Below the pieces are notes generated by a model that saw only the letters and a program-made list of their open reading frames with translations, made no database searches and was not told the origin of the DNA. From an uncultured virus (IMG/VR IMGVR_UViG_3300021138_000003) (taxonomy: Duplodnaviria; Heunggongvirae; Uroviricota; Caudoviricetes), in the IMG/VR virus record IMGVR_UViG_3300021138_000003: DNA of 64,000 nucleotides; one strand, given 5' to 3'. This document shows, one piece after another, positions 1,516 through 64,000 of the stretch. Every line of letters starts with the position of its first letter. Position 1 is the stretch's first letter. The translations under genes were made by a program, and so were the position numbers.

Positions 1516-1519
1516 GTGC

Positions 1520-2134: not shown

Positions 2135-2145
2135 GGAGTATTTGT

Positions 2146-2976: not shown

Positions 2977-3005
2977 TTGACTAAATTACTTTAATCTAGT
3001 ATATT
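2977..3005 (+). promoter_or_regulatory. sigma70-like early promoter
   Basis: TTGACT-17nt-TATATT. Confidence 0.6.
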
Positions 3006-3035
3006 AAGCAGTAGATAGATAATAAGGAATTAGAT

Positions 3036-3572
3036 ATGAAAACCTATGTGACCAGTGATCTCCATTTCTTCCACCAGAATATAATGAAGTTCTGCCCTGA
3101 AACTCGTCCTTATAAGGACGTCGAAGATATGAATCAGAGCATGATTCGCGAGTGGAATGCCAAGGTTGCCGCAGAGGACACTGTATACATCCTGGGCGAC
3201 GTTGCGTTCGCACCTACTAACAAGGCGGTTGAGATTCTGAATCAGCTAAACGGCGATAAGATTCTAATCGAAGGCAACCACGACCGCAAGATGCTAAAAG
3301 ATCCGGTGTTTCGTCGTTGCTTCAAGGAAATCCATGTTTATTATGAAATGACTTATAACAAGACTTTTGTAGTGATGTTCCACTATCCAGTATTTGATCA
3401 TAATCGAGCAGGGCATGGTAGCATTATGTTACATGGCCACCGTCATGGTCAGCCCACTGGTATTCCAGGAAGGATTATGGATGTAGGATATGATGCAACT
3501 GGAAAAATTGTAGTTGAGTTAGATGAAGTTATTCAGAAGATGAAACTTGTTGATCCAATGAAGCACCATTGA
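3036..3572 (+). CDS. Calcineurin-like metallophosphoesterase
   Basis: SDLHF, LGD, GNHD and HGHxH motifs. Confidence 0.9.
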   Translation: MKTYVTSDLHFFHQNIMKFCPETRPYKDVEDMNQSMIREWNAKVAAEDTVYILGDVAFAPTNKAVEILNQLNGDKILIEGNHDRKMLKDPVFRRCFKEIHVYYEMTYNKTFVVMFHYPVFDHNRAGHGSIMLHGHRHGQPTGIPGRIMDVGYDATGKIVVELDEVIQKMKLVDPMKHH

Positions 3573-3597
3573 CATACGTTAGAATTGTCTATATAAT
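3569..3597 (+). promoter_or_regulatory. sigma70-like early promoter
   Basis: TTGACA-17nt-TATAAT. Confidence 0.8.
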
Positions 3598-3626
3598 GCG
3601 CTAATAAACAACACAAGGACACAGAC

Positions 3627-4517: not shown

Positions 4518-4789
4518 TGTCGTACTACAACGAGCGTAATGGTTGGGCAGACACCGGCAAGAAATTAAATAATCGCCGGTGTCCAAACTGCAGAAGCACT
4601 AGGTTCAAAGAAACGTTGAGTCGTGAACACTGCCCCGATTGCGGTCTAGAATGCAACTATTGGGGCAGTGGCGCTAATGAAGTCTATGATGCTATGTGTA
4701 AGCGTAAATGGGCCGAGGAAGATCGCAAGCGTGAAGAAGACTTTCGTAGACAAATGCGCGAAGAATGGAGTGATGGGTATGACGATTAA
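4517..4789 (+). CDS. Small Zn-ribbon protein
   Basis: CPNC...CPDC. Confidence 0.65.
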   Translation: MSYYNERNGWADTGKKLNNRRCPNCRSTRFKETLSREHCPDCGLECNYWGSGANEVYDAMCKRKWAEEDRKREEDFRRQMREEWSDGYDD

Positions 4790-4994
4790 GCCTGGAACGA
4801 CTGTTAGCATCAACAGCATCGGCGATCTTGCTATGACTCACAAAAAGTGGATAAACAAGAAAGCAATCGTCATTAAGCAGTGCAAATCTGGACTGTTTTT
4901 AGTGCAAGATATTATGTCTAATGAACAAACTACTGTACCGAAACGCAATTTGGATATTGTAGAAAAGGCGTGGGGAGAAAATAATGACAGTTGA
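4779..4994 (+). CDS. Hypothetical protein (SH3/KOW-like)
   Basis: ORF overlapping neighbours; start placed at MTIKPG. Confidence 0.5.
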   Translation: MTIKPGTTVSINSIGDLAMTHKKWINKKAIVIKQCKSGLFLVQDIMSNEQTTVPKRNLDIVEKAWGENNDS

Positions 4995-5133
4995 AGACTT
5001 ACAGCGTGTCTACGATTCATTGCTTGAATGCGGGCCTGACGAAGAAGACTTTGGTTGGGGACCCACATACGAGTTTGCAATGCAACGCAGAAACAATGCA
5101 TTGAGGATTCTTAAGGAAGCGATAGAACGATAA
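4984..5133 (+). CDS. Small hypothetical protein (49 aa)
   Basis: SD GGGAG, MTVEDLQRVY...; below ORF-track length cut-off. Confidence 0.5.
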   Translation: MTVEDLQRVYDSLLECGPDEEDFGWGPTYEFAMQRRNNALRILKEAIER

Positions 5134-5197
5134 ATCAGTTGTATTCTCGACGGAAACCTAGTATAATATATCTTATAAACAACTTAAAGGAAATAAG

Positions 5198-5692
5198 ATG
5201 ACCAAGACTTGTACTATTCTCGTTGGTGTGCCTGCCGCCGGTAAGAGCACTTGGATCAGCAATCAGCCGTTGAAGGACGATACTTATATTGCGTCCACGG
5301 ATCGTGTCATTGAGGAAACTGCTCGTGAATATGGTATGACCTACAACGAAGCTTTCAAGGATCTTATTGGATTCGCTGAAACTGTGATGTGGCGCCACAT
5401 CGATCGTGCTGTGTTGTTTGGTCATGATATCGTCATCGATCGTACTAACATGAGCCGCAAGAGCCGTGCTAAGTTCATCAACTATTTGAAGAACAAGGGC
5501 TATGTGTTCGATGTTGTTGTGTTCGATCATCCCGAAGACAAGACTGAGTGGAATCGTCGACTGAATTCGCGTCCTGGTAAGACCATTCCTGAGAATGCAA
5601 TTCAGTCTATGCTGGCGTCGTTCCAGTTTCCTTCTCATGAGGAAGGTTTCCGCGACATCACTGTGATTAATTCGTTTTTGAATGATGGCTAA
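5198..5692 (+). CDS. Polynucleotide kinase-like P-loop kinase (AAA_33)
   Basis: Walker A GVPAAGKST, STD, IVIDRTN, RRLNSRPGK. Confidence 0.85.
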   Translation: MTKTCTILVGVPAAGKSTWISNQPLKDDTYIASTDRVIEETAREYGMTYNEAFKDLIGFAETVMWRHIDRAVLFGHDIVIDRTNMSRKSRAKFINYLKNKGYVFDVVVFDHPEDKTEWNRRLNSRPGKTIPENAIQSMLASFQFPSHEEGFRDITVINSFLNDG

Positions 5693-5693
5693 T

Positions 5694-6437
5694 TTAAGGC
5701 TTCTTTTTAAGTAACATACCAGAAACCCACTCATTACCAAATGGTTTTTCTTTAGCACAGACTGCTATTACCCCATTATTATACCACTTGTTTCCCAGTG
5801 TAGTGGGTTTCTGGTTTAATCTTCCGTTAGTCCATCCCTCTGGGCATTCTTTAAGAAATCTGGTCTCTATGCCGTTATTGTACCAACTTCTTTCAGAATT
5901 CGTTTTTGCTCGGCGAATGCCTGAAGCCGTTTTCACGGCAGCTGAATGGACCTTTCCATACATCGGATTTAACTCTCCAACATATTTCTCCTTTCGGAAA
6001 TCTGAAATTTTTTTCTTTGTTTCAGATGATAATGTTTTACCTTTATGTGATTCACTAATTTTATTTTTAAATTCGATCGATCGGGATATACCTTTTAATT
6101 TGTGACTTATTTTAGATTTATGTTCATCTGATAAAGGACCAAATTTTTTCCCTTTATTGATACTGCCGCCTGATCCTTGTTCTAAAGTTAAATTGGCCCA
6201 CATGGTGCTATTAACTATATCCCATAATTTACTATAATAAATTCCCCATTCGGTTACTTCCTGAGCGGTTGCACATTCTTTTAAAATTTCTGTAGTTACA
6301 TCATATCCATGCTTTTTGATATGATAGGTCCAACGTTTTCCAGATCCTCGATATTTGTGCGGATCTTTTGATTCTGTTTTTCCGAGATATTTTAACCCAG
6401 TTTTATTGTGAGTTTTGACGTACAAATAAATAGTCAT
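5694..6437 (-). CDS. Free-standing GIY-YIG homing endonuclease with NUMOD3-like and WYNNG repeats
   Basis: IYLYVKTH...KYLGKT, YRGSG, HKSKIS/ETKKKIS/NPMYGKVHS repeats; start at MTIYL with SD AAGGA. Confidence 0.85.
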   Translation of the reverse strand: MTIYLYVKTHNKTGLKYLGKTESKDPHKYRGSGKRWTYHIKKHGYDVTTEILKECATAQEVTEWGIYYSKLWDIVNSTMWANLTLEQGSGGSINKGKKFGPLSDEHKSKISHKLKGISRSIEFKNKISESHKGKTLSSETKKKISDFRKEKYVGELNPMYGKVHSAAVKTASGIRRAKTNSERSWYNNGIETRFLKECPEGWTNGRLNQKPTTLGNKWYNNGVIAVCAKEKPFGNEWVSGMLLKKKP

Positions 6438-6494
6438 GCTGATAGTTCCTTTATAACCGTTAGTGTCCTTGGGTTTTGCCGAACCGCGAAGGAC
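6438..6494 (-). ncRNA. Conserved structured RNA leader of homing endonuclease gene (copy 1)
   Basis: Shares P1-CGC-P2(GGC loop)-C-P1'-CUAA..AUCAGC-AUG architecture with 41171-41225 and 53809-53863, with compensatory changes. Confidence 0.75.
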
Positions 6495-6501
6495 TTTTTT
6501 G

Positions 6502-6530
6502 TTGACTTGATAAAACAAAAATTGTATAAT
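6502..6530 (+). promoter_or_regulatory. sigma70-like early promoter
   Basis: TTGACT-17nt-TATAAT. Confidence 0.8.
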
Positions 6531-6567
6531 ATATTTATATTTTAACACAGATATAGAAAGCAACTTT

Positions 6568-7077
6568 ATGACCACTACCCGAGCAACCCTTTTTCTTGAT
6601 ATGGACGGCGTAGTTGCCGACTTTGACGGCTATGCAAGCAAGGTCCTCGGACAGCCTGCTCCAGATGGTCGCTGGCCCGACGAAGTTTGGTCTAGCATTA
6701 TCCGCGATCCTCGCATCTATGGACTGCTTGAAAAGACCAAAGAAGCAGATGCGCTAGTCGAATACTGTCGTTACCTTAGGGATACACGTAATTACAAACT
6801 CCTGTTCCTAACTGCTGTACCCAAGGGTAACGATGTTCACTGGGCATTCTACGACAAGGTGCTATGGGGCCAAAAGTATTACCCGGATATTCCTGTTCAC
6901 TTTGGTCCGTTTGCCAAGAACAAAAAGGATCACTGCAAGACCGGTGATATCCTGATCGATGATAAGCCCAGCAATATCATTGAATGGGAAAATGTTGACG
7001 GTAAGGGAATCTTGCACAAAGGTGATCTTTTAGAAACCTTGGATATTCTTAAGGGCATTGTTCAAGGCAATGACTAA
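6568..7077 (+). CDS. HAD-family 5'(3')-deoxyribonucleotidase (NT5C-like)
   Basis: LDMDGVVADF, LTA, ILIDD. Confidence 0.85.
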   Translation: MTTTRATLFLDMDGVVADFDGYASKVLGQPAPDGRWPDEVWSSIIRDPRIYGLLEKTKEADALVEYCRYLRDTRNYKLLFLTAVPKGNDVHWAFYDKVLWGQKYYPDIPVHFGPFAKNKKDHCKTGDILIDDKPSNIIEWENVDGKGILHKGDLLETLDILKGIVQGND

Positions 7078-7474
7078 AGTCGTAGTAAACGGCACATTTG
7101 ATATTTTGCATGTCGGACACATTGAATTGCTCCGACATGCAAAAACTGCATATCCCGACGCATTTGTTTATGTGCTAATTGATTCCGATAAACGAGTTCG
7201 AGAACTCAAAGGTCCTGGCCGACCTGTTAATACGCAAGAAGAGCGTCGAACCATGTTACAGGCTCTCCGCTATGTAGATGCTGTAAATACTTTCAAAAGC
7301 GATCAAGAGCTTGCCGATATCATTCGTGGGTTCGAACCTGACATAATGGTCAAGGGCAGCGACTATAAAGACAAGCCAATAATCGGCGCAGAATATTGTA
7401 AAGAAATAGATTTTTATGAAAGACTCGAAGAATTCTCGACAACCAAAAAAATTCAAGATATTACTAATCGGTGA
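7070..7474 (+). CDS. Cytidylyltransferase-family nucleotidyltransferase (HldE/RfaE domain II-like)
   Basis: NGTFDILHVGH, ELKGPGRP, VKGSDY, FSTT. Confidence 0.9.
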   Translation: MTKVVVNGTFDILHVGHIELLRHAKTAYPDAFVYVLIDSDKRVRELKGPGRPVNTQEERRTMLQALRYVDAVNTFKSDQELADIIRGFEPDIMVKGSDYKDKPIIGAEYCKEIDFYERLEEFSTTKKIQDITNR

Positions 7475-8177
7475 TAATTGTACTGATGTGTATCAATACG
7501 GCGTAGTAGACCGTATAAGTCCAGAGGCTCCTGTTCCGATTTTCCGGTTTACACACGTTGAGAATCGACCAGGCATGGTATCAAATGTCAAAAACAATCT
7601 ATTAAACTTAGGATGCACAGTAACGTGTATGCACGGCATCTCTAGCACAAAAACTCGAGTAATTGATTCTAGATCTAGACAACATTTGCTACGCATGGAT
7701 GAAGATGTAGCCAGCCAACCATTGTTATTCGATGATATCGATTTAACTCAAGATTATGACGCAATTGTAGTCAGTGATTACGAAAAAGGTTACGTTAGCT
7801 ACACATTGATTAGAGATCTACGTGATCATTTTGATGGACCTATATTTGTAGATACCAAAAAGCCAGATCTAGAATATTTTGAAGGTTGCTACGTTAAAGT
7901 AAATGCACACGAGCGCGCAGCAGCTACTAGTGTATGCACAGACCTTATTGTAACGCGCGGAGAACAGGGCGCAGAACACGATAACGTAAAATATCCTGCG
8001 CCTGCAACAGAAGTTGTAGACGTTTGCGGTGCAGGTGACACATTTACCGCTGCTCTAGCGTATCAATACCTGAAAACCAAAGATATTAAAGAAGCAATTA
8101 AGTTTGCTATCAAAGCTGGCGCAGTTTCTGTGCAGCATACAGGTGTGTATGCACCAAAATTAGAGGAAATACAATGA
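7416..8177 (+). CDS. PfkB-family sugar kinase (HldE/RfaE domain I-like)
   Basis: RISPEAPVP, SDYEKG, VDVCGAGDTF. Confidence 0.9.
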   Translation: MKDSKNSRQPKKFKILLIGDNCTDVYQYGVVDRISPEAPVPIFRFTHVENRPGMVSNVKNNLLNLGCTVTCMHGISSTKTRVIDSRSRQHLLRMDEDVASQPLLFDDIDLTQDYDAIVVSDYEKGYVSYTLIRDLRDHFDGPIFVDTKKPDLEYFEGCYVKVNAHERAAATSVCTDLIVTRGEQGAEHDNVKYPAPATEVVDVCGAGDTFTAALAYQYLKTKDIKEAIKFAIKAGAVSVQHTGVYAPKLEEIQ

Positions 8178-21442: not shown

Positions 21443-22222
21443 CTAAGACCATCTGGACGTAATCATACCTTTAATCCATCCTTTAGATATGTAGTCTTCT
21501 AAATTTTCTCGGGATATTCGAAGATTCTCGGTACCGTTGTTTATCCATGTTGCACCTTTTTTAACAGGTGCCCATTTCTTTTTAATCCAACCATTTGATA
21601 ATTTTGCTGTTAACTCGCCAATCTCGCACAAACTATATTCATCCATTTCGGCCTGATAAATCCAAACTTTTCCTTGAGTTGGAGATCTAGGAAGTCCTTT
21701 TTTCCAGCCTTCATTAATATAAGCAGACAACTTATTTGGAGATATCATTTTCTTTTCGGTACCTCTATAAACCCAAATGGTATCTGTTGTAGAAGACATA
21801 TTCCTACCTATTATCCATCCTTCTTTTAACATTTTTTCTACCGCATTAGGATGAACAGCGCATCGTTCATTTGTTTCCGAATGATGTAAATGTTTCAATC
21901 CGGTACTCCCTTTATTATAACCACCATAGCCACCTCCTACTATATTATAAACATCTGATCTTTTTAAAAAATCAAGAGTTACTATTTCCTTTTCTTTAGC
22001 AAACATTTCTTCCGGAGTTTCAAAAATGTATAATACCTCTTTTTTAAAAAATTCTCTTCCATATTTTTCTATTGCACGATTTATGTTAGTTCCTGAACCA
22101 CAATAATCATCATTTAGATTATCTGTAGAATGAGCACCTATGTAAAATTTATTGTTCATTAAATTGGTAGTTTGATAAACGGTGTGGAATTTTCTTTTAT
22201 TTTGATGCTTGGTATTTGCCAC
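21443..22222 (-). CDS. Free-standing GIY-YIG (Seg-like) homing endonuclease
   Basis: VYQTTN...FYIGAH, YCGSG, AIEKYG, YN..GG; repeated GW..G / WI modules. Confidence 0.85.
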   Translation of the reverse strand: MANTKHQNKRKFHTVYQTTNLMNNKFYIGAHSTDNLNDDYCGSGTNINRAIEKYGREFFKKEVLYIFETPEEMFAKEKEIVTLDFLKRSDVYNIVGGGYGGYNKGSTGLKHLHHSETNERCAVHPNAVEKMLKEGWIIGRNMSSTTDTIWVYRGTEKKMISPNKLSAYINEGWKKGLPRSPTQGKVWIYQAEMDEYSLCEIGELTAKLSNGWIKKKWAPVKKGATWINNGTENLRISRENLEDYISKGWIKGMITSRWS

Positions 22223-37975: not shown

Positions 37976-38731
37976 TTAGTCGTCTAACTCCTTATAGATT
38001 GATAAAATTTCCTTAACCGCCGGGTGACGTTCGATATCTTTTGCTTGAAATTGCACGATATCGATCATCTTGTGGCCTGAATGAGTGCGTAAACGACTCA
38101 CAAAGTCTAATAACCCGTTTGTTTCGGGTCTATCTGCCTGTTGTAGATCTCCTGTTACAATCATTCTCGAGTTTTCACCGATACGTGTTAGTAACATTTT
38201 CATCTGACTTGGTGTTGCATTTTGCATTTCGTCAGCTACAATGTAAGCGTTCTTGAATGTGCGCCCACGCATATAAGCAAGAGGACTAATTTCAAGAAGA
38301 CCATTTTCTAACATGGAAGTAATTTCTCGTGGATGATAGTATTCTTTGAAAACATCAAATATTGGACGAGTCCATGGTTCCATTTTCTGTTCCAGTGTGC
38401 CTGGTAGAAATCCATGTTCTTCATCGACAGATACAGCCGGCCGTGTAATGACTATTTTGTCAACCACCCCCTCTTTGAATTGCTTGATGGCATGCTGTAC
38501 TCCAAGCATAGTCTTACCGGTACCTGCTGGCCCGATGGCAAAGACTATGTATTTTCGTGAGTTTCGAAGAGCCTCAATATATGTTTCCTGGCTTAGATTG
38601 CGAGGAACAATATTAACGTCTTTCTTCTTTTTAACATAATGATTGAATTCGATAAGGTTTGGTGTCTCATCGCGCTGCGAATAAGCATTGTTGGCACCAG
38701 TGTTGCGTTCACGCCTTCTTGGTTTAGACAA
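37976..38731 (-). CDS. phoH: PhoH-like ATPase
   Basis: GPAGTGKT, TRPAV, GFLPG, YMRGRTF, DEMQN, TGD; TTG start with SD GGAG. Confidence 0.95.
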   Translation of the reverse strand: MSKPRRRERNTGANNAYSQRDETPNLIEFNHYVKKKKDVNIVPRNLSQETYIEALRNSRKYIVFAIGPAGTGKTMLGVQHAIKQFKEGVVDKIVITRPAVSVDEEHGFLPGTLEQKMEPWTRPIFDVFKEYYHPREITSMLENGLLEISPLAYMRGRTFKNAYIVADEMQNATPSQMKMLLTRIGENSRMIVTGDLQQADRPETNGLLDFVSRLRTHSGHKMIDIVQFQAKDIERHPAVKEILSIYKELDD

Positions 38732-38844
38732 ATCGCATCTCCTAAAGTAGATGACCTGCACACTTAATTATCTATATTTTTTAAAATCCTAATCAAATGC
38801 CGAAATTCGGAATCGCATAAATACCTTGCCAAGAGAGAACCCAT

Positions 38845-40204: not shown

Positions 40205-40600
40205 ATGGGTAAAGAAGTACTTGAACACAAGCATCTTATCGTCAGAGCAGAGTTAAATAATCCACCACAATGCGCCGAAGCAATTCAAGACTGGATGAAA
40301 AATCTAGTGGATCAAATTGGCATGAAAATTTTAATGGGCCCCTACGCTGTATATTCTGACATGGTCGGTAATCGCGGACTGACCGCCGTGACTATTATTG
40401 AGACTAGCCATATAAGCGTTCATGTTTGGGATGAATGCGAACCTGCATTAATGCAAATGGATGTTTACACTTGCTCTGAATTGAACATTAGCGATGTATT
40501 TCAAGCCATTGCTCCTTTCGAGCCTGTTAAGACTGAATACAAATTCATTGACCGAGAACATACTCTCACGTTGCTCGAGCAAGGAAAACAAGAATTATAA
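40205..40600 (+). CDS. speD: S-adenosylmethionine decarboxylase proenzyme
   Basis: GLTAVTIIETSHISVHVW, DVYTC. Confidence 0.85.
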   Translation: MGKEVLEHKHLIVRAELNNPPQCAEAIQDWMKNLVDQIGMKILMGPYAVYSDMVGNRGLTAVTIIETSHISVHVWDECEPALMQMDVYTCSELNISDVFQAIAPFEPVKTEYKFIDREHTLTLLEQGKQEL

Positions 40601-41170
40601 TTTTTTCTTGCAATGGTCGTTATGCCATCTAGTTATATTTCCAATGTTACTTTGTTTACCACAATGTTTGCAAACCGAAATATGACAAGAGGCATGGCGA
40701 CCATCAGCAAGCATTTCTTTTTGTAAGTTGCCGCCGACCCAGTGGTGCGTTCCATCGGCTACACGTTTTCTATTTGAAGTTCTCTGGATTTCACCACCTA
40801 TGAAATTATGAGTTCCTGATTCAATATTTTTTCTTCTAGATTCTTCTTGCCTTTTCAGAGTTTCTTGAGAAATGTTTTGCTTCAAAAAGTTATGCTTACC
40901 TGCATCTATTCTCCGTGCATTACTTAATTTTGCAATTTTACTTTTTTCAGTCGAAGAGAGTAAATTTTTCATTCTAAAAGCAATTAATCTGCAGGCGCCA
41001 TAATCGCCTTGTCGAAAATGTATCTCATAGTGTTCTTGTAATGTTACTGACATTAAATTTTTTGGGTCGTTATTTAATTTATTACCATCTATGTGATGAA
41101 TTTCATTCCCTTCGGGAATAGGACCATAGTGTTTTTCATAAACTTGTCTGTGATTACTATAAATATTCAT
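40595..41170 (-). CDS. Free-standing HNH homing endonuclease
   Basis: HRQVYEKHYGPIP...IHHIDGNKLNN...NL...EH; GTHNF repeats; C-terminal CKHC..HNDHC. Confidence 0.9.
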   Translation of the reverse strand: MNIYSNHRQVYEKHYGPIPEGNEIHHIDGNKLNNDPKNLMSVTLQEHYEIHFRQGDYGACRLIAFRMKNLLSSTEKSKIAKLSNARRIDAGKHNFLKQNISQETLKRQEESRRKNIESGTHNFIGGEIQRTSNRKRVADGTHHWVGGNLQKEMLADGRHASCHISVCKHCGKQSNIGNITRWHNDHCKKKL

Positions 41171-53207: not shown

Positions 53208-53807
53208 TTATTTTAATCGAGTTCTAGGTAGCATCCCAGAAACCCACTCATTGCCAAATGGTTTTTGTTTAGCACAAACTGCTATAACTCCATTATTGTA
53301 CCATTTGTTTCCTAATGTAGTAGGTTTCTGGTTTAATCGTCCTTTTGTCCATCCCTCTGGACATTCTTTAAGAAATTTAGAATCTTTTCCATTATTGTAC
53401 CAACTTCTTTCAGAATTTGTTTTTGCCCGGCGTATACTCGAGGCTACTTTTACACTATCCGAATGTGTTTTTCCAAACATACCATTTCTATTACCCTTTC
53501 GAATTTCAGATAATCTTTTTAATGTCTGATCAGAAAATTTAAGACCCGAAGCGCCTTCGCCGCCGTCAGTTTTATTGATTAGAATTCCAGTGTTATTATC
53601 TTTTCTGCCGTACCATCGAATGTATCGACGCTCAATTGCAAGAGCTCCTAATTCAGTCAGATTTTGTTCAAGAAATACAATTCTAGATAAATCCTTCGGA
53701 GGACGATGGTGTTTGTGATTTTGAAATGCCCGCATTTCTTTTCCCTTTCCGATATAATAAGGGGAACCATCTCTGCGTATATAGGCATATACATAATAAA
53801 TATTCAT
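53208..53807 (-). CDS. Free-standing GIY-YIG homing endonuclease with NUMOD3-like and WYNNG repeats
   Basis: YYVYAY.R.DG.PYYIGKG, E...I..YGR, L.N.TDGGEG, NGMFGKTHS. Confidence 0.9.
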   Translation of the reverse strand: MNIYYVYAYIRRDGSPYYIGKGKEMRAFQNHKHHRPPKDLSRIVFLEQNLTELGALAIERRYIRWYGRKDNNTGILINKTDGGEGASGLKFSDQTLKRLSEIRKGNRNGMFGKTHSDSVKVASSIRRAKTNSERSWYNNGKDSKFLKECPEGWTKGRLNQKPTTLGNKWYNNGVIAVCAKQKPFGNEWVSGMLPRTRLK

Positions 53808-55460: not shown

Positions 55461-56647
55461 TCGACGAAAATCGAAAAGGTATACGAGCAGTAAAGCGAAA
55501 AATCAAACCGGCTAGCGGCCATTCCGGAACAAAAAAACTAGGTCCAGCTACTCCAATGACTCGCAAAATTCATGTTGCAAAAAACGGTGTATATAAGGTG
55601 AAGAAGCACAAATATTTCGAAGATCTCGAAGCACAATTAACTAGTACATTAAACGAATATCAAGATAGGATGGCAGGAGTGGGTATGGGAGATTACAGTC
55701 CAACAGAAACCTTTAATGGCGGTGGAGAATACAACGACGAAGTAGGCATGATTAAAAGCGATCTACATACCATTGGTCGTTCTGCTGTCGAACTGGCTAA
55801 AATTTTAGGCCCGGATGAAAATCTTCCAGAATGGGCTCAAGAAAAAATTGCACAAGTTAAAGGAATGCTAACTTCAGTTACAGATTATATGAAAAGCCAG
55901 CACGAACAAGGTGACGTTTTTCATACCAACGAATCTAAAGGTGAACACGTATCGGTACTATACATTGACGGGCGTCCATCAACAAAGTACACTAACCCAA
56001 AAGATGCAGAAAAAGATCTTAACACATTAAAATCAAAATATCCTAAAAAATCTTTCGAACTTAAACGAGAAATCAGAGAAGATGATCTAGAAGAAGGGTG
56101 GGGTAAGGCTGCACTAATCGGCACTGCTACATTCATTGCAGCAATTGCAGGTATTAATCATATGCAAGCACAAAAACTCATGCACAGTGATCCGCAACTT
56201 GCTAAACTAGCTCAATTCCGAGATCGTGCGGTAAAAATAGGAGATGAAGCAAAAGTAGAAGAACTTGATAAAAGAATCGAAGCTACATTAAGTCACCTCC
56301 AAGTAACCGGTGATGAAATACGCGGAGACGACGGTAAGCCAGTTGATCCAGTTTACGAGGATCGTTGGAAATTTAGTGGAAAAACCGGCGGAATGGAGCG
56401 TGACACTTCAGATTCTGATCAGCGTCATGGGTTATATATTAATGGAAAATTAATTAGAACCTATAATACAAAAGCTGAAGCAGAAAATGTCAAGCGTCGT
56501 GATCCAAAATTCAAAGATGCCACAATTAAAAAGATTGCTGAATCTAAAAAATGGACACACGATAGTCTTGCAAAGAAATTATTTGAACAAGAAATTACAT
56601 ATGAAGATCAATTAAATGGTATGCTACGCAGGAAGTTAAGCAAATGA
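55457..56647 (+). CDS. Modular late protein (putative internal head polyprotein)
   Basis: EYNDEVGM..ENLPEWAQEKI module; several xxE-delimited segments. Confidence 0.7.
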   Translation: MIDENRKGIRAVKRKIKPASGHSGTKKLGPATPMTRKIHVAKNGVYKVKKHKYFEDLEAQLTSTLNEYQDRMAGVGMGDYSPTETFNGGGEYNDEVGMIKSDLHTIGRSAVELAKILGPDENLPEWAQEKIAQVKGMLTSVTDYMKSQHEQGDVFHTNESKGEHVSVLYIDGRPSTKYTNPKDAEKDLNTLKSKYPKKSFELKREIREDDLEEGWGKAALIGTATFIAAIAGINHMQAQKLMHSDPQLAKLAQFRDRAVKIGDEAKVEELDKRIEATLSHLQVTGDEIRGDDGKPVDPVYEDRWKFSGKTGGMERDTSDSDQRHGLYINGKLIRTYNTKAEAENVKRRDPKFKDATIKKIAESKKWTHDSLAKKLFEQEITYEDQLNGMLRRKLSK

Positions 56648-57081
56648 GCGATCTTAGCAAAGCAGCAAAAATTGCATTCTCTTCTGAATTTGCTTTCTAT
56701 TTGAAAGCACATAACTTTCATTGGAACATAGAAGGCCCAGATTTTCTAGAATATCACGAACTTTTTGGCAAAATCTACGAAGAAGTATATAGTTCAATTG
56801 ACGATTTTGCAGAAAAAATTCGTGCAATCGGATCATATGTTCCAGCTAGCTTTGCTCGATTTAGTATGTTAACTCAAATCGAAGACGAAACAGACGTACT
56901 TGACCAAATGTCAATGATAAATGAACTACTAGGCGACAATGAAAAAATGGGCAAGGTTCTTAAAATGGTCTACGATCTTGCAGAACAACACGGTGAACAC
57001 GGTTTCTCAAACTTCTTGGCCGAACGCATGGATGCGCACAGAAAACACTCGTGGATGCTACGTGCGAGCCTTAAAAGATAA
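56644..57081 (+). CDS. dps: Dps/ferritin-like protein
   Basis: KAHNFHWNIEG, HELF, DDFAEKIR, H.K..WML. Confidence 0.9.
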   Translation: MSDLSKAAKIAFSSEFAFYLKAHNFHWNIEGPDFLEYHELFGKIYEEVYSSIDDFAEKIRAIGSYVPASFARFSMLTQIEDETDVLDQMSMINELLGDNEKMGKVLKMVYDLAEQHGEHGFSNFLAERMDAHRKHSWMLRASLKR

Positions 57082-57085
57082 TTGA

Positions 57086-57114
57086 TTGACATTTTCAAAT
57101 AATTCGTTTATACT
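57086..57114 (+). promoter_or_regulatory. sigma70-like early promoter
   Basis: TTGACA-17nt-TATACT. Confidence 0.75.
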
Positions 57115-57136
57115 ACGTAAACAATAAGGAGAAAAT

Positions 57137-57406
57137 ATGAGTAAAGTTTTTGGCAACGCTGAATTAGCGAAGCTCAAGCAGTTGGTTAACGAAGGTGTTA
57201 CCGTCCTTCAAGAAGTTGAAGATCTTACCCAAGGTCTTAACGACACAATTAAAGCAGTTGCAGAAGAATTAGAAGTAAAGCCTGCAATTATCAAGAAAGC
57301 AATTAAAGTTGCACAAAAGGGTAACTGGGAAAACGTATTCAGCGACTTCGACGATCTCGAAACTATCGTTGCTGCTACCGGCCATGATACCCGCAGTAAT
57401 CCCTAA
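57137..57406 (+). CDS. Small dsDNA-binding protein (T4 DsbA/DUF2312-like)
   Basis: Helical pattern IKAVAEELEVKPAIIKKAIKVA; SD AGGAG. Confidence 0.55.
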   Translation: MSKVFGNAELAKLKQLVNEGVTVLQEVEDLTQGLNDTIKAVAEELEVKPAIIKKAIKVAQKGNWENVFSDFDDLETIVAATGHDTRSNP

Positions 57407-57436
57407 AATTAGATAATTAAAGTATATAGAGTATGG

Positions 57437-57486
57437 TGTGACGAGCCACAAATCGTCGCGAAGAAGGTTGCCGGCCATAAGCGGTA
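57437..57486 (+). promoter_or_regulatory. Tandem hairpins with GCCAYAAR octaloops upstream of the polymerase operon
   Basis: TGTGACGA-GCCACAAA-TCGTCGCG and TGCCG-GCCATAAG-CGGTA. Confidence 0.55.
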
Positions 57487-57623
57487 TGGAAAATAAAATG
57501 ATAAAAGAAGAAAGAGAATTTCTCTGCGAATCGTGTATCGATATCGATTATTGCACTACACGTTGCAAACTCCAAGAACAATTAAGTGAAGATGTAGAAG
57601 TCATTCGGGAGGAATCTGAATGA
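57486..57623 (+). CDS. Small Cys-rich protein
   Basis: CESC...C...C; overlaps polB start (ATGA). Confidence 0.45.
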   Translation: MENKMIKEEREFLCESCIDIDYCTTRCKLQEQLSEDVEVIREESE

Positions 57624-59251
57624 GTTACGTTGACGCACGATGGGACCGCGACAATGATGTCGTGCAAGTCGTAGAGCGCGACCCAAAATTAGGTCGCATC
57701 TACCAAGAATATCCGGCAAGATACGTGTTCTATTATCCAGATCAAAAAGGTAAGCACACAAGCATTTTCGGAGATCCGTTAAGCAAAGTAGTTGCTAAAA
57801 ACTGGAAAGAATATACCAAAGAACAAAAGATTCATAGTGGTCATAAGCTGTTTGAGAGTGACATTAATCCAGTATTTCGGTGTCTAGAAGAGAACTATCT
57901 AGGTCGAGACGAATCTAAACTCAACGTTGCATTTTGGGATATCGAGGTGGACTTCGATCCTGAACGAGGATATGCAAGTCCCGACGATGCGTTTATGCCA
58001 ATTACCGCAATAGCAGTTCACCTACAATGGCTAGATACATTAGTATGTTTGGCTGTTCCACCTAAAACCTTAACTATGGCGGAGGCGCAGGAGTTAATCA
58101 AAGATATTCCTAACACAATTCTATACGAAACTGAAGCAGAAATGTTAGACACATTTCTAAATCTAATCGAAGATGCAGACGTGCTTAGTGGTTGGAACAG
58201 TGAGGGATTTGATATGCCCTACACTGTGAATCGAATCATTAAAACGTTAAGCAAGGAAGATACTCGCAGATTGTGTTTGTGGAATCAATTTCCAAAACGT
58301 CGTGAATATGAAAAGTACGGAAAAGCTGCCGTCACTTATGATATTTCAGGGCGTGTACACCTTGATAGTCTCGAACTTTATCGTAAGTATACATACGAAG
58401 AACGTCATAGCTATCGATTAGATGCTATCGGTGAAATGGAAGTCGGTGAAACTAAAACGGTATACGAAGGCACACTTGATCAGCTTTACAACAATGACTT
58501 CCGAAAATTCATTGAATATAACCGGCAGGACACTGCACTACTCGATAAGTTAGATAAGAAATTAAAATTTATCGATCTTGCGAACTCGATTGCACACGAA
58601 AACACCGTTCTATTGCAAACAACAATGGGCGCTGTTGCTGTTACAGAACAGGCAATTATTAACGAAGCCCATAGACATGGTCTAATTGTTCCAAGTCGCA
58701 CACGCAAAGATGATCGTGGCGATACGCAGGCCGCAGGTGCATACGTTGCATATCCCAAGAAGGGATTGCATGAATGGATTGGGTCGATGGATATTAACTC
58801 ACTGTATCCATCAGCAATTCGTGCGCTGAATATGGGTCCAGAAACAATTATCGGACAGCTACGACCAGATTATACTACTCCGGAAATTGAAGCAAAAATG
58901 GCTCGAGGAATGAGCTTTGCTGCTGCGTGGGAAGGCAAATTTGGTAGTAATGAATACGAATTTGTCATGAATCGAGACAAAGCCCACGATATCATTGTCG
59001 ATTGGGAAGACGGATCGACTGATGTGCTTAGTGGTGCTCAAATTTACGATGTAATTTTCGAAACTAACAAGCCGTGGATGATCAGTGCCAATGGAACTAT
59101 CTTTACCTACGAAAAGGAAGGTATTATTCCAGGTCTTCTAAAACGTTGGTATGCGGAGCGGCAATCATTACAGGCCGAACTGAAGTCATATATTGAACTT
59201 TCGTCCGGAATTGACATTGATGATCAATTTATAGAGTCATTGACAATATAA
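57620..59251 (+). CDS. Family B DNA polymerase, N-terminal half (exonuclease + motif A)
   Basis: ExoI DIE, ExoII WNSEGFD, ExoIII YNRQD, motif A DINSLYPS; ends after first fingers helix. Confidence 0.95.
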   Translation: MSYVDARWDRDNDVVQVVERDPKLGRIYQEYPARYVFYYPDQKGKHTSIFGDPLSKVVAKNWKEYTKEQKIHSGHKLFESDINPVFRCLEENYLGRDESKLNVAFWDIEVDFDPERGYASPDDAFMPITAIAVHLQWLDTLVCLAVPPKTLTMAEAQELIKDIPNTILYETEAEMLDTFLNLIEDADVLSGWNSEGFDMPYTVNRIIKTLSKEDTRRLCLWNQFPKRREYEKYGKAAVTYDISGRVHLDSLELYRKYTYEERHSYRLDAIGEMEVGETKTVYEGTLDQLYNNDFRKFIEYNRQDTALLDKLDKKLKFIDLANSIAHENTVLLQTTMGAVAVTEQAIINEAHRHGLIVPSRTRKDDRGDTQAAGAYVAYPKKGLHEWIGSMDINSLYPSAIRALNMGPETIIGQLRPDYTTPEIEAKMARGMSFAAAWEGKFGSNEYEFVMNRDKAHDIIVDWEDGSTDVLSGAQIYDVIFETNKPWMISANGTIFTYEKEGIIPGLLKRWYAERQSLQAELKSYIELSSGIDIDDQFIESLTI

Positions 59252-59920
59252 TCGTAATTGTTCAAGTGACGAAACGAAAAGAAAATTATCAACCAGTTTT
59301 TGTTTTTTGTAAATCCTTTCTAGATACCAAGGCTTGTTAATGGTGCTTATTTCAATATATAAATTTTTACTTTTGATATATGCATCACATTCTTTTTTTG
59401 AATTATTTGGATATTTTTTATGAAGTTGTATATCGTCACTACCATATATAGACATCAAATATTCGCAACAATCACGTTCTATTTGCGAATAATAAGTTCT
59501 CCCATTTTCAGTAACAGGTATACTCCAGGTGGGACGCAGGACACGAGGTTTGCATTCAAGACACCTAACGGTTTTGCGCAATGCTCTATCGAGAGTTGTA
59601 GTGATACAATTCCCACACAAATGAGTTAGTTTTATCAAAGAATATGAATTAATGTATTCATTACTATCTGAAAAACTCCAGCCTATATTTTTAAGTTGTT
59701 GTTGAACAATCGATAAAGGTTTACGAATACGAAGTTTATAACAATGTCTACATTCTTTACCGTCTCTGAGAACACCGGGACGTGTCCTCCAGACATTGTT
59801 ACAAACAAGACATAAATGATCAATAGGAGTATTCATATTAATATATCGATCAAGCGGAACAACTTTTCTAGGTTCAATCATATTGGTATATTGTTCATGT
59901 GTATATTTTATATTAGACAT
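59237..59920 (-). CDS. Putative homing endonuclease (Zn-ribbon repeats + PD-(D/E)xK-like nuclease) inserted antisense within polB
   Basis: CLVC, CRHC, H.CG, CLEC; SQIE...CDAY...YIEI nuclease-like motif; AT-rich. Confidence 0.7.
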   Translation of the reverse strand: MSNIKYTHEQYTNMIEPRKVVPLDRYINMNTPIDHLCLVCNNVWRTRPGVLRDGKECRHCYKLRIRKPLSIVQQQLKNIGWSFSDSNEYINSYSLIKLTHLCGNCITTTLDRALRKTVRCLECKPRVLRPTWSIPVTENGRTYYSQIERDCCEYLMSIYGSDDIQLHKKYPNNSKKECDAYIKSKNLYIEISTINKPWYLERIYKKQKLVDNFLFVSSLEQLRLYCQ

Positions 59921-59967
59921 ATTTCTCTCGCTAAATAGTTTCATATTTAGCATTTAAAGGAAAAGAA

Positions 59968-61176
59968 ATGCAAGCAATAGAAATTAAAAAATTAATTAAA
60001 GAAAAAAACGTCAAAGAATTACGCAAGTTGATACACGCAGGAATTTTAACTGTTAACGACGGGAAAATTTCTTTAACTGATAAAAATTATGCCAATGCTC
60101 AAATAGAATATTGGGATAAACGTCAGCTAGTTAAGAAGATTAACTTGAACAGTTTGTATGGTGCCATTCTTAACGCAGGTTGCAGATTCTTCGACAAACG
60201 TATCGGTCAAAGTACCACGCTCACTGGTCGTCGTATTGCTCGCCACATGGCAGGTAAGGTTAATGAATATATCACCGGAGATTACGATCATATTGGTAAA
60301 AGTGTAATTTACGGTGACACTGACTCTGTTTATTTCAGTGCATGGCCTATTTTGAAAACTGATATTCAAAAGGGATTAATTCCTTGGAACAAGGACACAG
60401 TTATTCAACTATACGATCAGATTTCAGACGAAGTAAACTCTACATTTCCACAATTCATGCTAGATGATTTTCATTGCCCTAAGTCGCGCGGCGAAGTTAT
60501 TAAAGCAGGTCGTGAAATTGTTGCAGACCGTGGATTGTTTATTACAAAGAAGCGTTATGCAGTTCGTTATTACGATAAGGAAGGCAAGCGTCAAGACAAG
60601 GATGGCAAGGAAGGCAAAGTCAAAGCAATGGGCTTAGATCTCAAGCGTTCAGATACTCCGGAATTCATGCAAGACTTCTTAAGTGAAATCCTCGAAAGAG
60701 TACTAGACGGTGCTCCTGAGCAGGAAATCCTAGATCGCATCAGCGAATTCCGAACTGCATTTAAGGCCAGACCAGGCTGGGAAAAAGGATCGCCAAAGCG
60801 AGCAAATAACATTGCAGAATATCAGGCCAAAGAAAAGAAGTACGGTAAGGCAAATATGCCCGGACACGTTCGTGCTAGTATTAATTGGAACACCCTTAAA
60901 ACCATGCATGGTGACAAATACAGTCAGCAGATTGTCGACGGTATGAAAGTTATTGTCTGCAAGGTAAAGGATAATCCGCTCGGCTATACTAGTGTCGCAT
61001 ATCCGGTCGACGAACTTCGGTTGCCGCCATGGTTTCGAGAACTACCATTTAATCATGCCGATATGGAAACAGCGATTATTAACAACAAACTAGATAATCT
61101 TATCGGCGTGCTAGACTGGGATTTAGAATCAACTACACAAAACAATACATTTGGTAGTTTATTTTCGTTTGATTGA
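59968..61176 (+). CDS. Family B DNA polymerase, C-terminal half (motifs B and C, thumb)
   Basis: QLVKKINLNSLYG, YGDTDS, KKRYA; own SD AAGGA. Confidence 0.95.
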   Translation: MQAIEIKKLIKEKNVKELRKLIHAGILTVNDGKISLTDKNYANAQIEYWDKRQLVKKINLNSLYGAILNAGCRFFDKRIGQSTTLTGRRIARHMAGKVNEYITGDYDHIGKSVIYGDTDSVYFSAWPILKTDIQKGLIPWNKDTVIQLYDQISDEVNSTFPQFMLDDFHCPKSRGEVIKAGREIVADRGLFITKKRYAVRYYDKEGKRQDKDGKEGKVKAMGLDLKRSDTPEFMQDFLSEILERVLDGAPEQEILDRISEFRTAFKARPGWEKGSPKRANNIAEYQAKEKKYGKANMPGHVRASINWNTLKTMHGDKYSQQIVDGMKVIVCKVKDNPLGYTSVAYPVDELRLPPWFRELPFNHADMETAIINNKLDNLIGVLDWDLESTTQNNTFGSLFSFD

Positions 61177-61238
61177 AAATAATCATTGACCTTTAACCAA
61201 AACCTAAATATAATACACAACAAAGGATAAAAATAAAA

Positions 61239-61973
61239 ATGCTTGATCTACTTAAAGACATTGTATCACATACACATAACTTAGGCTTCTTAAACATCGT
61301 AAAGATTACAGGCGATGAAGAATCTACAAAAATCGACAGCATGGCAGACGATCGGTCTGTTATCATGTATGGCGAAGTAAACAATGCAGTTCCGGAAATG
61401 CAGGGCGTATTCGGTATGCCGCAGCTTAACAAACTAAAGATCCACTTAGATTGCCCGGAATACAAAGACAAGGCAAAGATTGACATCGTAACTGCCGATC
61501 GCAATGGTGTTAATTTGCCCGTTGGTCTGCACTTTGAAAATGCTGCAGGTGACTTCAAGAACGATTATCGATTCATGAACACTGAAATCATTAACGAAAA
61601 GCTAAAGACTGTTAAGTTCCGCGGTGTTACATGGACTGTTGAAGTTGAGCCAAGTGTTGCTGCTATTCAGCGTTTTCAATTTCAGGCCGCAGCAAACAAT
61701 GAACACACAACATTCTTAACCAAGACCGACGGCGGTAATCTAAAATTTATCTTCGGCGATCAAAGCACACACGGTGGTGAATTTGTGTTTGCAACAGGCG
61801 TTACTGGTAATTTGTCAAAAGCATGGACTTGGCCAGTTAGCCAAGTATTGAGCATTCTTAAGATTGCAGATGCTAACAATGCTAAATTGAGCATCAGTAA
61901 TGAAGGTGCAATGCAGATCACATTAGATAGTGGGATTGCAACTTATCAGTATATTATTCCGGCGCAGGCATGA
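61239..61973 (+). CDS. Sliding clamp (gp45/PCNA-like)
   Basis: Size, beta-rich two-domain pattern, position after polB, YIIP C-terminus. Confidence 0.6.
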   Translation: MLDLLKDIVSHTHNLGFLNIVKITGDEESTKIDSMADDRSVIMYGEVNNAVPEMQGVFGMPQLNKLKIHLDCPEYKDKAKIDIVTADRNGVNLPVGLHFENAAGDFKNDYRFMNTEIINEKLKTVKFRGVTWTVEVEPSVAAIQRFQFQAAANNEHTTFLTKTDGGNLKFIFGDQSTHGGEFVFATGVTGNLSKAWTWPVSQVLSILKIADANNAKLSISNEGAMQITLDSGIATYQYIIPAQA

Positions 61974-62335
61974 TAAAGAATATTTCCGCAACAGGAAGGT
62001 ACATACAGGTGCAAGGCGGAATGCCCTCACCTGTATATTTCAACAACTTTAGTGGTGCAATGGGTGTCGGTGACGTAAGATATAACACAAATTCTCAGTC
62101 ACTTGAAGTTTACGACGGCACCACTTGGATGCAATTTCAGGACGGATATCCTATGATAAGTCTCACCACCGAGGCAGAAACATTGTTAGATTGGGCTCGT
62201 GAGCAGCGTAATAAGCAATGGGAATTAGATGAACTAGCTAAAACCAAACCTGCCGTACAAGCCGCAATAGCAAACCTAAATAACGCCAAAGCACAGTTAG
62301 AAGCAACTGTGATATTAAGCAAAGAGACATTATGA
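61970..62335 (+). CDS. Hypothetical protein
   Basis: GDVRYN...LEVYDG..W; LLDWAR. Confidence 0.7.
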   Translation: MIKNISATGRYIQVQGGMPSPVYFNNFSGAMGVGDVRYNTNSQSLEVYDGTTWMQFQDGYPMISLTTEAETLLDWAREQRNKQWELDELAKTKPAVQAAIANLNNAKAQLEATVILSKETL

Positions 62336-63972
62336 CACGACCACCAGTTAATTTAACTCCATTGCAGAAAGACTACGCTGTCTATTTGCCAGCTATCAGT
62401 AGTTTTTACAGCACATATATTGCCAAGCAACGATTAGAAGAGTTTGTGCCAACAGAAAGAATTCCAGCAGGATTCGATCGAGGTATCGAAGGTATGAACT
62501 TCTTAAATCCCGAAGAAGGATACTTTACCTATAAGTATGCACTTTATTCTGCAGGTCATGCCCAGCTAGATGTAGTTAAAGCACAAACACAAGAAAGCAT
62601 GATTCAACAGCGCGACCGAAATAATACAATGATTTTAGGCGACTCGGGCGGTTATCAGATTGGTAAGGGTGTTCTTAAGTTTGATTGGTTAAATTTTGAC
62701 GGTCCTGCTGCAAACAAGACCCGTCAGAGTATCTTAGAATGGCTCGAAGTCACTGCTGACTGGTCCATGATGTTAGACGTTCCGACTTGGGCCTGCGATC
62801 ATATTCACAGTGAAAAAACAGGACTAAAAACGTTCGAAGATTGCTTAGATAAAACACGGTTCAATAATGATTACTTTTTAAAGAATCGGTTAGGTCAGAC
62901 TAAATGGCTGAATGTGTTGCAGGGCAGTGACTGGGATACTGCTGAAAAGTGGTATCAAGGCGTTAAGGAATTTAGTGATCCGGCTGGTCCATATGCAGGT
63001 AAAGAAGCAGAAGGCTGGGCATTCGGTGGTGCTAATATGTGCAAGATGGATATCACTCTTAAGCGCCTAATGACCCTTAGAGAAGACGGTTTGTTAACAA
63101 ACAAAAACTGGATTCACTTCTTGGGCACCGCACAACTTGATTGGAGTTGCTATCTAACTCTAATTCAGCGACAGGTCAGAAAACATATTAATCCAGAACT
63201 TACAATTTCGTTTGACTGTGCTAGTCCGTTTATCGCAACAGCACACGGGCTAGTTTATACTAACGCAGTTCACACTCCGAAACGGTGGTCAGTTATTATG
63301 GATAAGGCACCAGATAATAAATCACTTGCTGAATCGGATATTCCATTTCCGTTTGAATCAGAATTCGGTCGTAGATTAACAATGGGTGACATTGCTTACT
63401 ACAATCTCGGCGTACCGAAAACACAAGAGGAACTAGGCAAAGGTGTCACATTTGATCACTTAAATCCTGATCATTACGTTGAAGTTCCTAAGCTAAACAA
63501 ATTAGGTAAAATTCCTAACAAAACCTCTTGGGATAGTTTTAGCTATGCACTAATGATGGGTCACAATGTATACTGCCACATTGTTGCTGTGCAGAGAGCA
63601 CAACAGTTAATGGATATCGAACTCGTTAAGACCAAGGGCAAATTGCACTGGAAGCACTGGAAAAAGGTCAAAGCCGCAGATATGAGTGACGAATACAGTG
63701 ATTGGGTTCCGCGCAATATTCTTTACTTTAACAGCTTTATCGAAGACTTGTTCAACACCAAGACCAAAGAAGAAGCATTCGAAATGATTGATAGTCGTCA
63801 AGGAAAAGCATTCTTAACTGATCTAGAAGGTGCTCGACTACAAGGTGGGCCTGCTCAAAATCACTTCGGTAACTTGTTCGATGTAGAAACAGTAACTAAG
63901 CAAATCGAAATCGATCTAGCAAATCCCGACGACGATGACCTTCGCGCTCTAGAAGAAAGCATCGACGAATGA
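62332..63972 (+). CDS. TGT-fold base-exchange enzyme (DpdA/queuine tRNA-ribosyltransferase-like)
   Basis: DSGGYQ, MMLDVP, NVLQG, WAFGG, HFLG, SFD, HN motifs. Confidence 0.75.
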   Translation: MTRPPVNLTPLQKDYAVYLPAISSFYSTYIAKQRLEEFVPTERIPAGFDRGIEGMNFLNPEEGYFTYKYALYSAGHAQLDVVKAQTQESMIQQRDRNNTMILGDSGGYQIGKGVLKFDWLNFDGPAANKTRQSILEWLEVTADWSMMLDVPTWACDHIHSEKTGLKTFEDCLDKTRFNNDYFLKNRLGQTKWLNVLQGSDWDTAEKWYQGVKEFSDPAGPYAGKEAEGWAFGGANMCKMDITLKRLMTLREDGLLTNKNWIHFLGTAQLDWSCYLTLIQRQVRKHINPELTISFDCASPFIATAHGLVYTNAVHTPKRWSVIMDKAPDNKSLAESDIPFPFESEFGRRLTMGDIAYYNLGVPKTQEELGKGVTFDHLNPDHYVEVPKLNKLGKIPNKTSWDSFSYALMMGHNVYCHIVAVQRAQQLMDIELVKTKGKLHWKHWKKVKAADMSDEYSDWVPRNILYFNSFIEDLFNTKTKEEAFEMIDSRQGKAFLTDLEGARLQGGPAQNHFGNLFDVETVTKQIEIDLANPDDDDLRALEESIDE

Positions 63973-64000
63973 AGAGAGATTACACCACAGGCGTTTCAAC

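Follow-up and report, generated by a model that had tools for sequence, protein, structure and literature searches.

How an essential gene survives being cut by selfish DNA, with no splicing to repair its product, is only partly understood. In the one case studied biochemically, the NrdA protein of phage Aeh1, the origin of the tails that rescue the enzyme was left open in what its published account says on the matter. The same question is raised by a 64,000-nucleotide stretch of DNA (hereafter, the window) from an uncultured virus, IMG/VR record IMGVR_UViG_3300021138_000003. Its host genome is that of an uncultured, jumbo-phage-like giant phage of freshwater. In the window, the family-B DNA polymerase gene, polB, consists of two open reading frames (ORFs), and a minus-strand endonuclease gene occupies the gap between them. 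A first reading made from the letters alone, referred to here as the original prediction, had described this arrangement; the observation was confirmed and the interpretation, as a whole, was partly supported. We consider it likely that a free-standing homing-endonuclease cassette invaded the fingertip-coding part of polB, giving rise to a two-polypeptide, splicing-free polymerase in which a tail on the first polypeptide and a head on the second probably aid docking. As judged by sequence comparison, the structure and borders of the cassette, its lateral spread, the selection on its parts and the origin of the two ends are established.

The polymerase's N-terminal portion (N-half; 57620..59251, plus strand; 543 aa) comprises the exonuclease domain, the first part of the palm, the first fingers helix, a tail and a TAA stop codon at 59249-59251. 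It matched PF03104 (DNA_pol_B_exo1) and positions 13-140 of PF00136 (DNA_pol_B) in Pfam, and RB69 gp43 with an expect value (E) of 3e-33. The polypeptide terminates after the WYAER helix: it reads ...LQAELK and then continues into a 21-residue acidic tail (S523-I543; 59186..59248, plus strand; net charge -5). The C-terminal part (C-half; 59968..61176, plus strand; 402 aa) begins with a 46-residue basic head (M1-I46; 59968..60105, plus strand; net charge +3) that precedes EYWDKRQL. The second fingers helix with KKINLNSLYG, the YGDTDS palm motif and the thumb follow. Its Pfam match to DNA_pol_B starts at position 145, resuming the model coverage of the N-half. Residues K57, N61 and Y64 of the C-half aligned with K560, N564 and Y567 of RB69 gp43, which puts the break in the fingertip, where it separates the two fingers helices. 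As in the split gp43A/gp43B proteins, each half has its own signals: the N-half has its own stop codon, and the ATG of the C-half (59968) is preceded, six bases upstream, by a Shine-Dalgarno-like AAGGA (59957-59961).

The endonuclease gene is free-standing and lies on the minus strand at 59237..59953. Its longest ORF encodes 238 aa; homologues start at the internal methionine at 59920, so that the probable product has 227 aa and a divergent spacer with the AAGGA of the C-half remains at 59921..59967. The last 15 nt of the ORF overlap the end of the N-half, covering the final four codons of the tail and the stop. Because of this overlap, only 14-47 nt of non-coding DNA separate the halves, 47 nt being the most that the start at 59920 allows. 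The original prediction thus described the locus correctly in placing the split in the fingers domain around an antisense endonuclease gene, in assigning an acidic end to the N-half and a ribosome-binding site and basic head to the C-half, and in seeing almost no non-coding sequence between them.

We then scanned IMG/VR with the C-half and obtained 80 related loci of 72-100% identity. At 77 of these, a single open frame spans the N- and C-cores, which are separated by 33-42 nt and joined by a short fingertip of about 11 residues; its length is the same in 67 loci, and another 10 come close to it. The endonuclease gene was present at two loci, L075 and L005; over 8033 bp, the latter does not differ from the window. 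At the remaining locus, L024 (2524-4003), polB is otherwise uninterrupted, with its N part in two frames near residues 297-314, owing to a frameshift or to an error of assembly.

The nearest uninterrupted allele, L007 (with L006), is a single open frame. Window positions 56551-59185 and L007 positions 1333-3967 share 95.4% DNA identity, and window positions 60105-64000 and L007 positions 4000-7895 share 98.5%; between these matching flanks lie 919 bp in the window versus 32 bp in L007. The inserted block starts exactly at S523, stops at I46 of the C-half, and contains the 21-aa tail, the endonuclease gene, the ribosome-binding site, the ATG and the 46-aa head. We annotated this block as a mobile cassette (59186..60104), with borders set by blastn against L007 and L006 and by alignment of the junctions. 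Presence or absence at a single site is the pattern of a homing cassette, and here the cassette-free L007 and L006 have flanks 95-98.5% identical to those of the window. Since a near-identical uninterrupted allele has none of them, the break, both ends and the endonuclease gene arrived together. This agrees with the proposal in the original prediction of a mobile element that brings a restart signal and both peptides. To the left of the junction, mismatches to L007 number 13 in the nearest 100 bp and 29 in 300 bp, versus a single one in the first 800 bp on the right, a pattern that resembles a one-sided co-conversion tract. Relative to L007, there are also patches of 7-12 mismatches per 100 bp at window positions 57686-58085, 60905-61104, 61405-61504 and 63305-63604; these point to mosaic recombination among close phage relatives, unrelated to the cassette.

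The original prediction had itself named an assembly artefact as a way in which it could fail. Such an artefact was ruled out by the identical 8033-bp IMG/VR stretch, by border-covering contigs from other sequencing runs and by the occurrence of the same layout in four diverged lineages. More specifically, contigs from three freshwater runs besides the likely source covered both cassette borders with no differences, although these runs may stem from one campaign and joints with a short side (33-39 nt) are weak. Contigs from other freshwater runs skip the block, and one goes on with the sequence of the uninterrupted allele.

A different order of events is that polB already consisted of two cistrons and that the endonuclease gene invaded the spacer later, as proposed for Aeromonas phage 25 versus 44RR. 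The polB of Agrobacterium phage Atu_ph07 (L002, 878-3847) is broken at that aligned fingertip position too; it has a spacer of 18 nt and a GTG start and lacks an endonuclease gene. A published account takes up this ambiguity for phages 25 and 44RR (PMC2988022). The Atu_ph07 split may be an independent one; it is equally explicable as the footprint of a cassette that lost its endonuclease gene. In the lineage of the window, the break, both ends and the endonuclease gene were gained as one block that the nearest allele lacks. A split that preceded the endonuclease gene is therefore a doubtful account, and it bears on the first origin of the cassette, not on the window.

Could the gap conceal an element that restores a single polypeptide? 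Group I introns and inteins are common in phage polymerase genes, and a split intein at motif C is reported for the polB genes of PA5oct and MIJ3 (PMC6892783). According to an Rfam search of window positions 58500-60700 on both strands at E up to 1, the region has no match, and no ribozyme core of a group I or group II intron was found. Neither PF14890 nor a Hint domain was detected in either half using Pfam, and the head lacks a terminal HN with Cys, Ser or Thr after it. Moreover, an antisense ORF under purifying selection occupies the gap, and the sequences on both sides of the break align with ordinary fingertip coding sequence of unsplit relatives. Together, these data make a cryptic intron or intein highly unlikely, in keeping with the absence of such signals in the original prediction.

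To return to the homing cassette, the encoded endonuclease consists of two Zn-ribbon-like repeats followed by a C-terminal domain (residues 138-238) predicted to have a PD-(D/E)xK fold. The protein had no match in Pfam or NCBIfam. In PHROG, it matched families 559 (named HNH endonuclease; E 5e-15), 681 and 15137, all of which are endonuclease families. No Pfam HNH family was found in it at E up to 0.01, and the HNH name of PHROG 559 is annotation only. We collected 26 homologues with 43-65% identity, 6 of which contain PF14311 (Zn-ribbon). The two H-x-C-x2-C...C-x2-C-like repeats are invariant among the homologues, as are E159, D190, E201 and K207 in 20 sequences. In the structural model of the endonuclease, which had a predicted local distance difference test score (pLDDT) of 85, residues 138-238 matched TnsA (1t0f) in a wide VIA-align search with Z 9.0 and a root-mean-square deviation of 2.4 over 95 aligned residues. 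Further matches were VRR_NUC (Z 7.2), I-Bth0305I (3r3p; Z 6.6) and Vsr (1cw0; Z 6.2), and most of the 35 rows with Z of at least 5 were PD-(D/E)xK-fold nucleases. A Foldseek search of the model against the PDB returned nothing at E 0.001 or better; the best value was E 0.035, in weak rows for the influenza PA-N endonuclease. We conclude with moderate confidence that the C-terminal domain has a restriction-endonuclease-like PD-(D/E)xK fold with putative catalytic residues, consistent with the Zn-ribbon/PD-(D/E)xK-like nuclease of the original prediction. The likeness to TnsA, I-Bth0305I and Vsr lies in the fold of the modelled residues; sequence identity is 10-18%, and the N-terminal Zn-ribbon repeats are specific to the family of the window's endonuclease. 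The locus appears to yield a previously uncharacterised family of Zn-ribbon plus PD-(D/E)xK homing endonucleases with a defined target gene.

Nine viral and six metagenome loci were found in scans that used aligned homologues of the endonuclease. At all 13 loci with a full-length relative of the endonuclease (42-100% identity), the gene is antisense and directly follows the polB N-half. The C-half lies on the far side in 12 of the 13; the other, L097, ends at the contig edge. The same layout occurs in at least four diverged polymerase lineages and is kept down to 52-54% identity. Two more distant relatives were also noted. In L098 (1-1576), a Rak2/BF-like polB N-half is followed, at its tail, by a 30%-identical relative in antisense orientation; the ORF beyond it is not recognisably polB, and coverage of the contig is low. 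In L099 (3193-3558), a 122-aa protein with a different N-terminal part contains the C-terminal nuclease domain only (44% identity over 57 aa) and is flanked by a UvsX-like gene and a helicase-like gene rather than by polB, which suggests that the nuclease domain is modular.

A 64-row tree of the polymerase cores placed the window as sister to the cassette-free L006 (support 100), with L075 nested in a 35-row clade of cassette-free alleles and L088 and L089 branching below a 55-row short-fingertip clade. Cassette presence requires four changes of state on this tree. Placing the four cassette rows in one clade was rejected by the approximately unbiased (AU) test (p 2.7e-6), a figure to be read with the caution that this endonuclease-positive group was named after the tree had been seen. 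The divergence of the cassette likewise disagreed with that of the gene it occupies. Between L075 and L088, protein identity is 63% in the N-core and 66% in the C-core, versus 71% in the tail, 79% in the endonuclease and 98% in the head. At the DNA level, these two cassettes are 78-96% identical and their flanks 50-70%; synonymous divergence (dS) has saturated in the cores, against 0.5-0.86 in the cassette. The comparison of the window with L075 has the reverse pattern, the cassette being more diverged than the cores: identity is 75% in the N-core and 80% in the C-core versus 52% in the tail, 63% in the endonuclease and 68% in the head. Joint vertical descent of cassette and polymerase fits neither pair, because the divergences disagree in both directions. 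The history of the element thus differs from that of its host gene, as expected for lateral spread of a homing cassette, and by these comparisons the cassettes of L075 and L088 are more recently related than are their polymerase genes.

These data also bear on the idea that the cassette is ancestral and vertically inherited, the short uninterrupted fingertip having arisen by repeated precise deletions. Long fingertips are indeed found in the outgroup phages, as well as in L088 and L089, the two basal lineages with a cassette. By contrast, the sister allele of the window is cassette-free with cores 98% identical, the short fingertip is near-uniform in length, and the conflict between cassette and host-gene divergences runs in both directions. 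We regard vertical inheritance as improbable.

If the cassette spreads laterally, where did its tail and head come from? The nearest named relatives of the window polymerase are those of PA5oct, Phosso and Atu_ph07 (43-51% identity). A long fingertip insert occurs in phages Phosso, Serratia BF, K64-1, XbC2 and Vibrio 2.275.O, in which polB is one gene of about 1000 codons; Escherichia phage CMSTMSU, whose polB looks shattered, was omitted since its record is marked UNVERIFIED. A tblastn search of the phage collection with the 46-aa head alone gave nothing at E up to 1, and shuffle-tested profiles were therefore used. Against a profile of five unsplit distant fingertips, the head scored 20.8 bits, a score reached by none of 2000 shuffles (maximum 13.8). 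We also searched 5.8 billion proteins with residues 1-60 of the C-half. In the near-length range, this search returned 31 proteins (clusters at 90% identity), all of them C-pieces that begin with such a head. In the longer range, it returned one, the unsplit 963-aa P0059 (E 5e-3), of which the split C-half P0058 is a close relative. Two profiles, one built from cassette tails and one from cassette heads, each matched the fingertip of P0059 (0 of 2000 shuffles in both cases), and the tail profile also matched the tail of Atu_ph07 (2 of 2000 shuffles). As both profiles match the contiguous fingertip of an unsplit polymerase, the tail and the head are the two ends of one fingertip insert. On this evidence, an insert otherwise missing from the clade of the window returns in two pieces together with an endonuclease gene. 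The head match to contiguous inserts is the wider of the two among unsplit relatives. An AlphaFold model of unsplit P0059, built from a 28-row alignment, was too poor for use (mean pLDDT 56.8); the three short helices and hairpin that it has in the head-equivalent (about residues 551-598; pLDDT 58-68) are a hint only. The original prediction had called the extensions novel, while naming their presence as a contiguous insert in unsplit homologues as evidence to the contrary. Because unsplit jumbo-phage polymerases contain a contiguous insert that the head matches, and P0059 is matched by head and tail alike, the claim of novelty does not stand.

Some relatives have a further break. In PA5oct (L004, 1096-6322), polB is continuous at the fingertip and is broken by a split intein at motif C (YGDTD/S...VHN/S), with a 560-aa 'Hef-like' endonuclease gene between the pieces; a break of the same kind is described for MIJ3 polB (PMC6892783). 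Among the 31 head-bearing C-pieces, 13 contain PF14890 (intein splicing): P0028, P0031, P0034, P0037, P0041, P0042, P0047-P0049, P0052-P0054 and P0057. Twelve of these are 233-248 aa long and end in the N-part of an intein after YGDTDS. As head-bearing C-pieces carry PF14890, polB is in three pieces in some relatives, with a fingertip break and a split intein at motif C.

Selection on the parts of the locus speaks to whether the polymerase works at all. A dead gene, inactivated by the insertion, is conceivable in that a second polymerase could lie in the genome beyond the window. Both halves are nevertheless intact, the layout persists to 52-54% identity, and head-bearing C-pieces form 31 clusters at 90% identity. 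The cores are under purifying selection, as shown by a proportion of nonsynonymous differences (pN) of 0.15-0.32 against a saturated synonymous proportion (pS) of 0.77-0.87. It is very improbable, then, that the gene is dead. Between L075 and L088, the ratio of nonsynonymous to synonymous divergence (dN/dS) is 0.02 in the head, 0.23 in the tail and 0.14 in the endonuclease. These ratios indicate that all three are under purifying selection, the tail overlapping the endonuclease frame in part.

Overall, these data are consistent with the following mechanism. During co-infection, the endonuclease would cut cassette-free polB alleles, and repair would copy the cassette together with the fingertip-coding flanks of the donor. 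Translation of the N-half would stop at its TAA, and that of the C-half would start from its own ribosome-binding site. The two polypeptides would then reassemble without RNA or protein splicing, as do split gp43 and split Pfu polymerase. The tail and the head, as pieces of one small subdomain with opposite net charge, would help the halves to dock. This last step is the least certain; we hold it to be probable. In four cassette lineages including the window, the net charges are opposite, with tails of -4 to -5 and heads of +3 to +4; the tail of L095 has a net charge of 0, and the head-equivalents of unsplit relatives range from -3 to +2. As would be expected of tail-assisted assembly, the tails are absent from uninterrupted alleles, linked to the endonuclease gene and opposite in net charge to the heads. 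A predicted complex of N-half residues 510-543 with C-half residues 1-47 (score 0.24, mark 0.32) is evidence neither for nor against docking.

Alternatively, the cassette is mobile and the tail and head are passive, co-converted donor fingertip, with the palm and the two fingers helices alone holding the halves together. Fingertip-split Pfu polymerase and T4-like gp43 function without dedicated tails as far as their reports describe them (PMC3061061, PMC2988022), and 77 of the 80 relatives work with a fingertip that is short and lacks the insert. In the report on Aeh1 NrdA, moreover, the tails were dispensable for pairing of the two fragments (PMC3045599). Passive ends are less readily reconciled with the strong purifying selection on the head (dN/dS 0.02), with its better preservation than the endonuclease between L075 and L088 (98% versus 79%), or with opposite net charges in four cassette lineages when unsplit head-equivalents range from -3 to +2. 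We consider passive ends a real possibility, short of probable.

The precedents that manage without tails weigh against the account of an invading cassette whose ends assist docking, as do several further points. The docking role of the tail and head is at present a proposal. Conservation of the tail may partly reflect its overlap with the 3' end of the endonuclease gene, and the match of the tail to the profile of five unsplit distant fingertips was not significant (627 of 2000 shuffles). In the endonuclease, the invariant stretch reads E201-x-S203 with K207 nearby, a canonical (D/E)xK is not obvious, and the best fold match has a Z of only 9.0. Mosaic patches elsewhere in the flanks resemble the mismatches at the junction and make these less telling, and the AU group was chosen after the fact. 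Finally, a promoter and terminator scan found 8 promoter-like sites versus 13 expected and 0 terminators, none above chance, and there were no RNA runs among the sequencing runs listed as containing the stretch. With these points taken into account, we still consider invasion by a homing cassette, yielding a polymerase of two polypeptides, to be likely.

A bolder proposal, which we offer tentatively and think rather unlikely, casts the cassette as a portable split-and-dock module in which an endonuclease gene travels between the two halves of one small, folded fingertip subdomain. If true, the module would install a fingertip subdomain into polymerases that had lost it, and refolding of the halves across the break would make invasion of an essential gene harmless. 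A selfish element would then drive domain gain in a replicative polymerase and might alter the role of the fingertip in nucleotide selection.

Elsewhere in the window, a ferritin/Dps-like gene lies just upstream of polB (56644-57081, plus strand), and a PhoH gene lies farther away (37979-38761, minus strand). A 546-aa ORF downstream of a clamp-like gene (62332-63972, plus strand) had no Pfam or PHROG match. Four more minus-strand ORFs within an otherwise plus-strand gene block have homing-endonuclease signatures: NUMOD3 (5697-6575), SegE GIY-YIG (21446-22222), HNH_3 (40598-41170) and NUMOD3 (53211-53807). Antisense free-standing endonuclease genes thus seem to be a habit of this genome. Megablast of the 3.6-kb polB region against the phage collection gave no match, and a literature search for the arrangement found general precedents and, in the passages covered, none describing the cassette or the polymerase clade of the window. 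We regard the locus as a further example of the known class of essential genes fragmented by endonuclease genes.

Of the two closest precedents, one concerns a polymerase. Petrov et al. reportedly described, in 2006 and 2010, a split gene 43 (43A/43B) in Aeromonas and Acinetobacter phages 25, 31, 44RR, 65 and 133, with seg43(25) in phage 25. As in the window, a family-B polymerase is broken into two cistrons at the fingertip, between the two fingers helices, and in phage 25 a free-standing endonuclease gene sits in the gap; gp43A and gp43B are reported to co-purify and to be active (PMC2988022). Those phages are T4-related, whereas the window polymerase belongs to another, jumbo-phage-like clade. 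The endonuclease of phage 25 is described as being of the GIY-YIG seg type, unlike the antisense Zn-ribbon plus PD-(D/E)xK enzyme of the window. The order of events in phage 25 was, in the account given, left open, whereas the window has a near-identical uninterrupted sister allele. In fractured genes (Dassa et al. 2009, cited in PMC6892783), as exemplified by PA5oct and MIJ3 polB, a phage polB is likewise fragmented, an endonuclease gene lies between the fragments, and an intein of this kind at motif C also occurs in some relatives of the window C-half. Those genes are described as breaking at YGDTDS; the window breaks at the fingertip and has no intein blocks. An engineered fingertip-split Pfu polymerase also reassembles and is reported to be fully active (Hansen et al. 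2011, PMC3061061). That construct is artificial and, as described, includes neither a mobile element nor added peptide ends.

The other of the two closest precedents, the ribonucleotide reductase of phage Aeh1, offers a parallel for the ends themselves. In nrdA-a/mobE/nrdA-b, a homing endonuclease gene splits an essential gene whose products carry assembly tails and are not spliced; the tails, which arose with the mobE insertion, are reported to be essential (Crona et al. 2010, PMC3045599). The same report proposes that such tails are inherited with the endonuclease gene and may be general (PMC3045599). The enzyme is a different one, and the charges are reversed relative to the acidic tail and basic head of the window. 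In addition, the tails of the window, known from sequence alone, trace to a pre-existing polymerase subdomain, and the whole unit moves between lineages, features that set it apart from Aeh1 as reported. What the present locus adds is a natural series of alleles: uninterrupted with a short fingertip, uninterrupted with a long fingertip, split with an endonuclease gene, and split without one. This series indicates that tails can be a domain of the donor gene itself, transported by the cassette as two pieces, and it provides four or five natural variants for a direct test of docking. The locus accordingly gives comparative evidence, in a polymerase, for the proposal of Crona et al. (2010) as set out in their report, and names a source for the tails.

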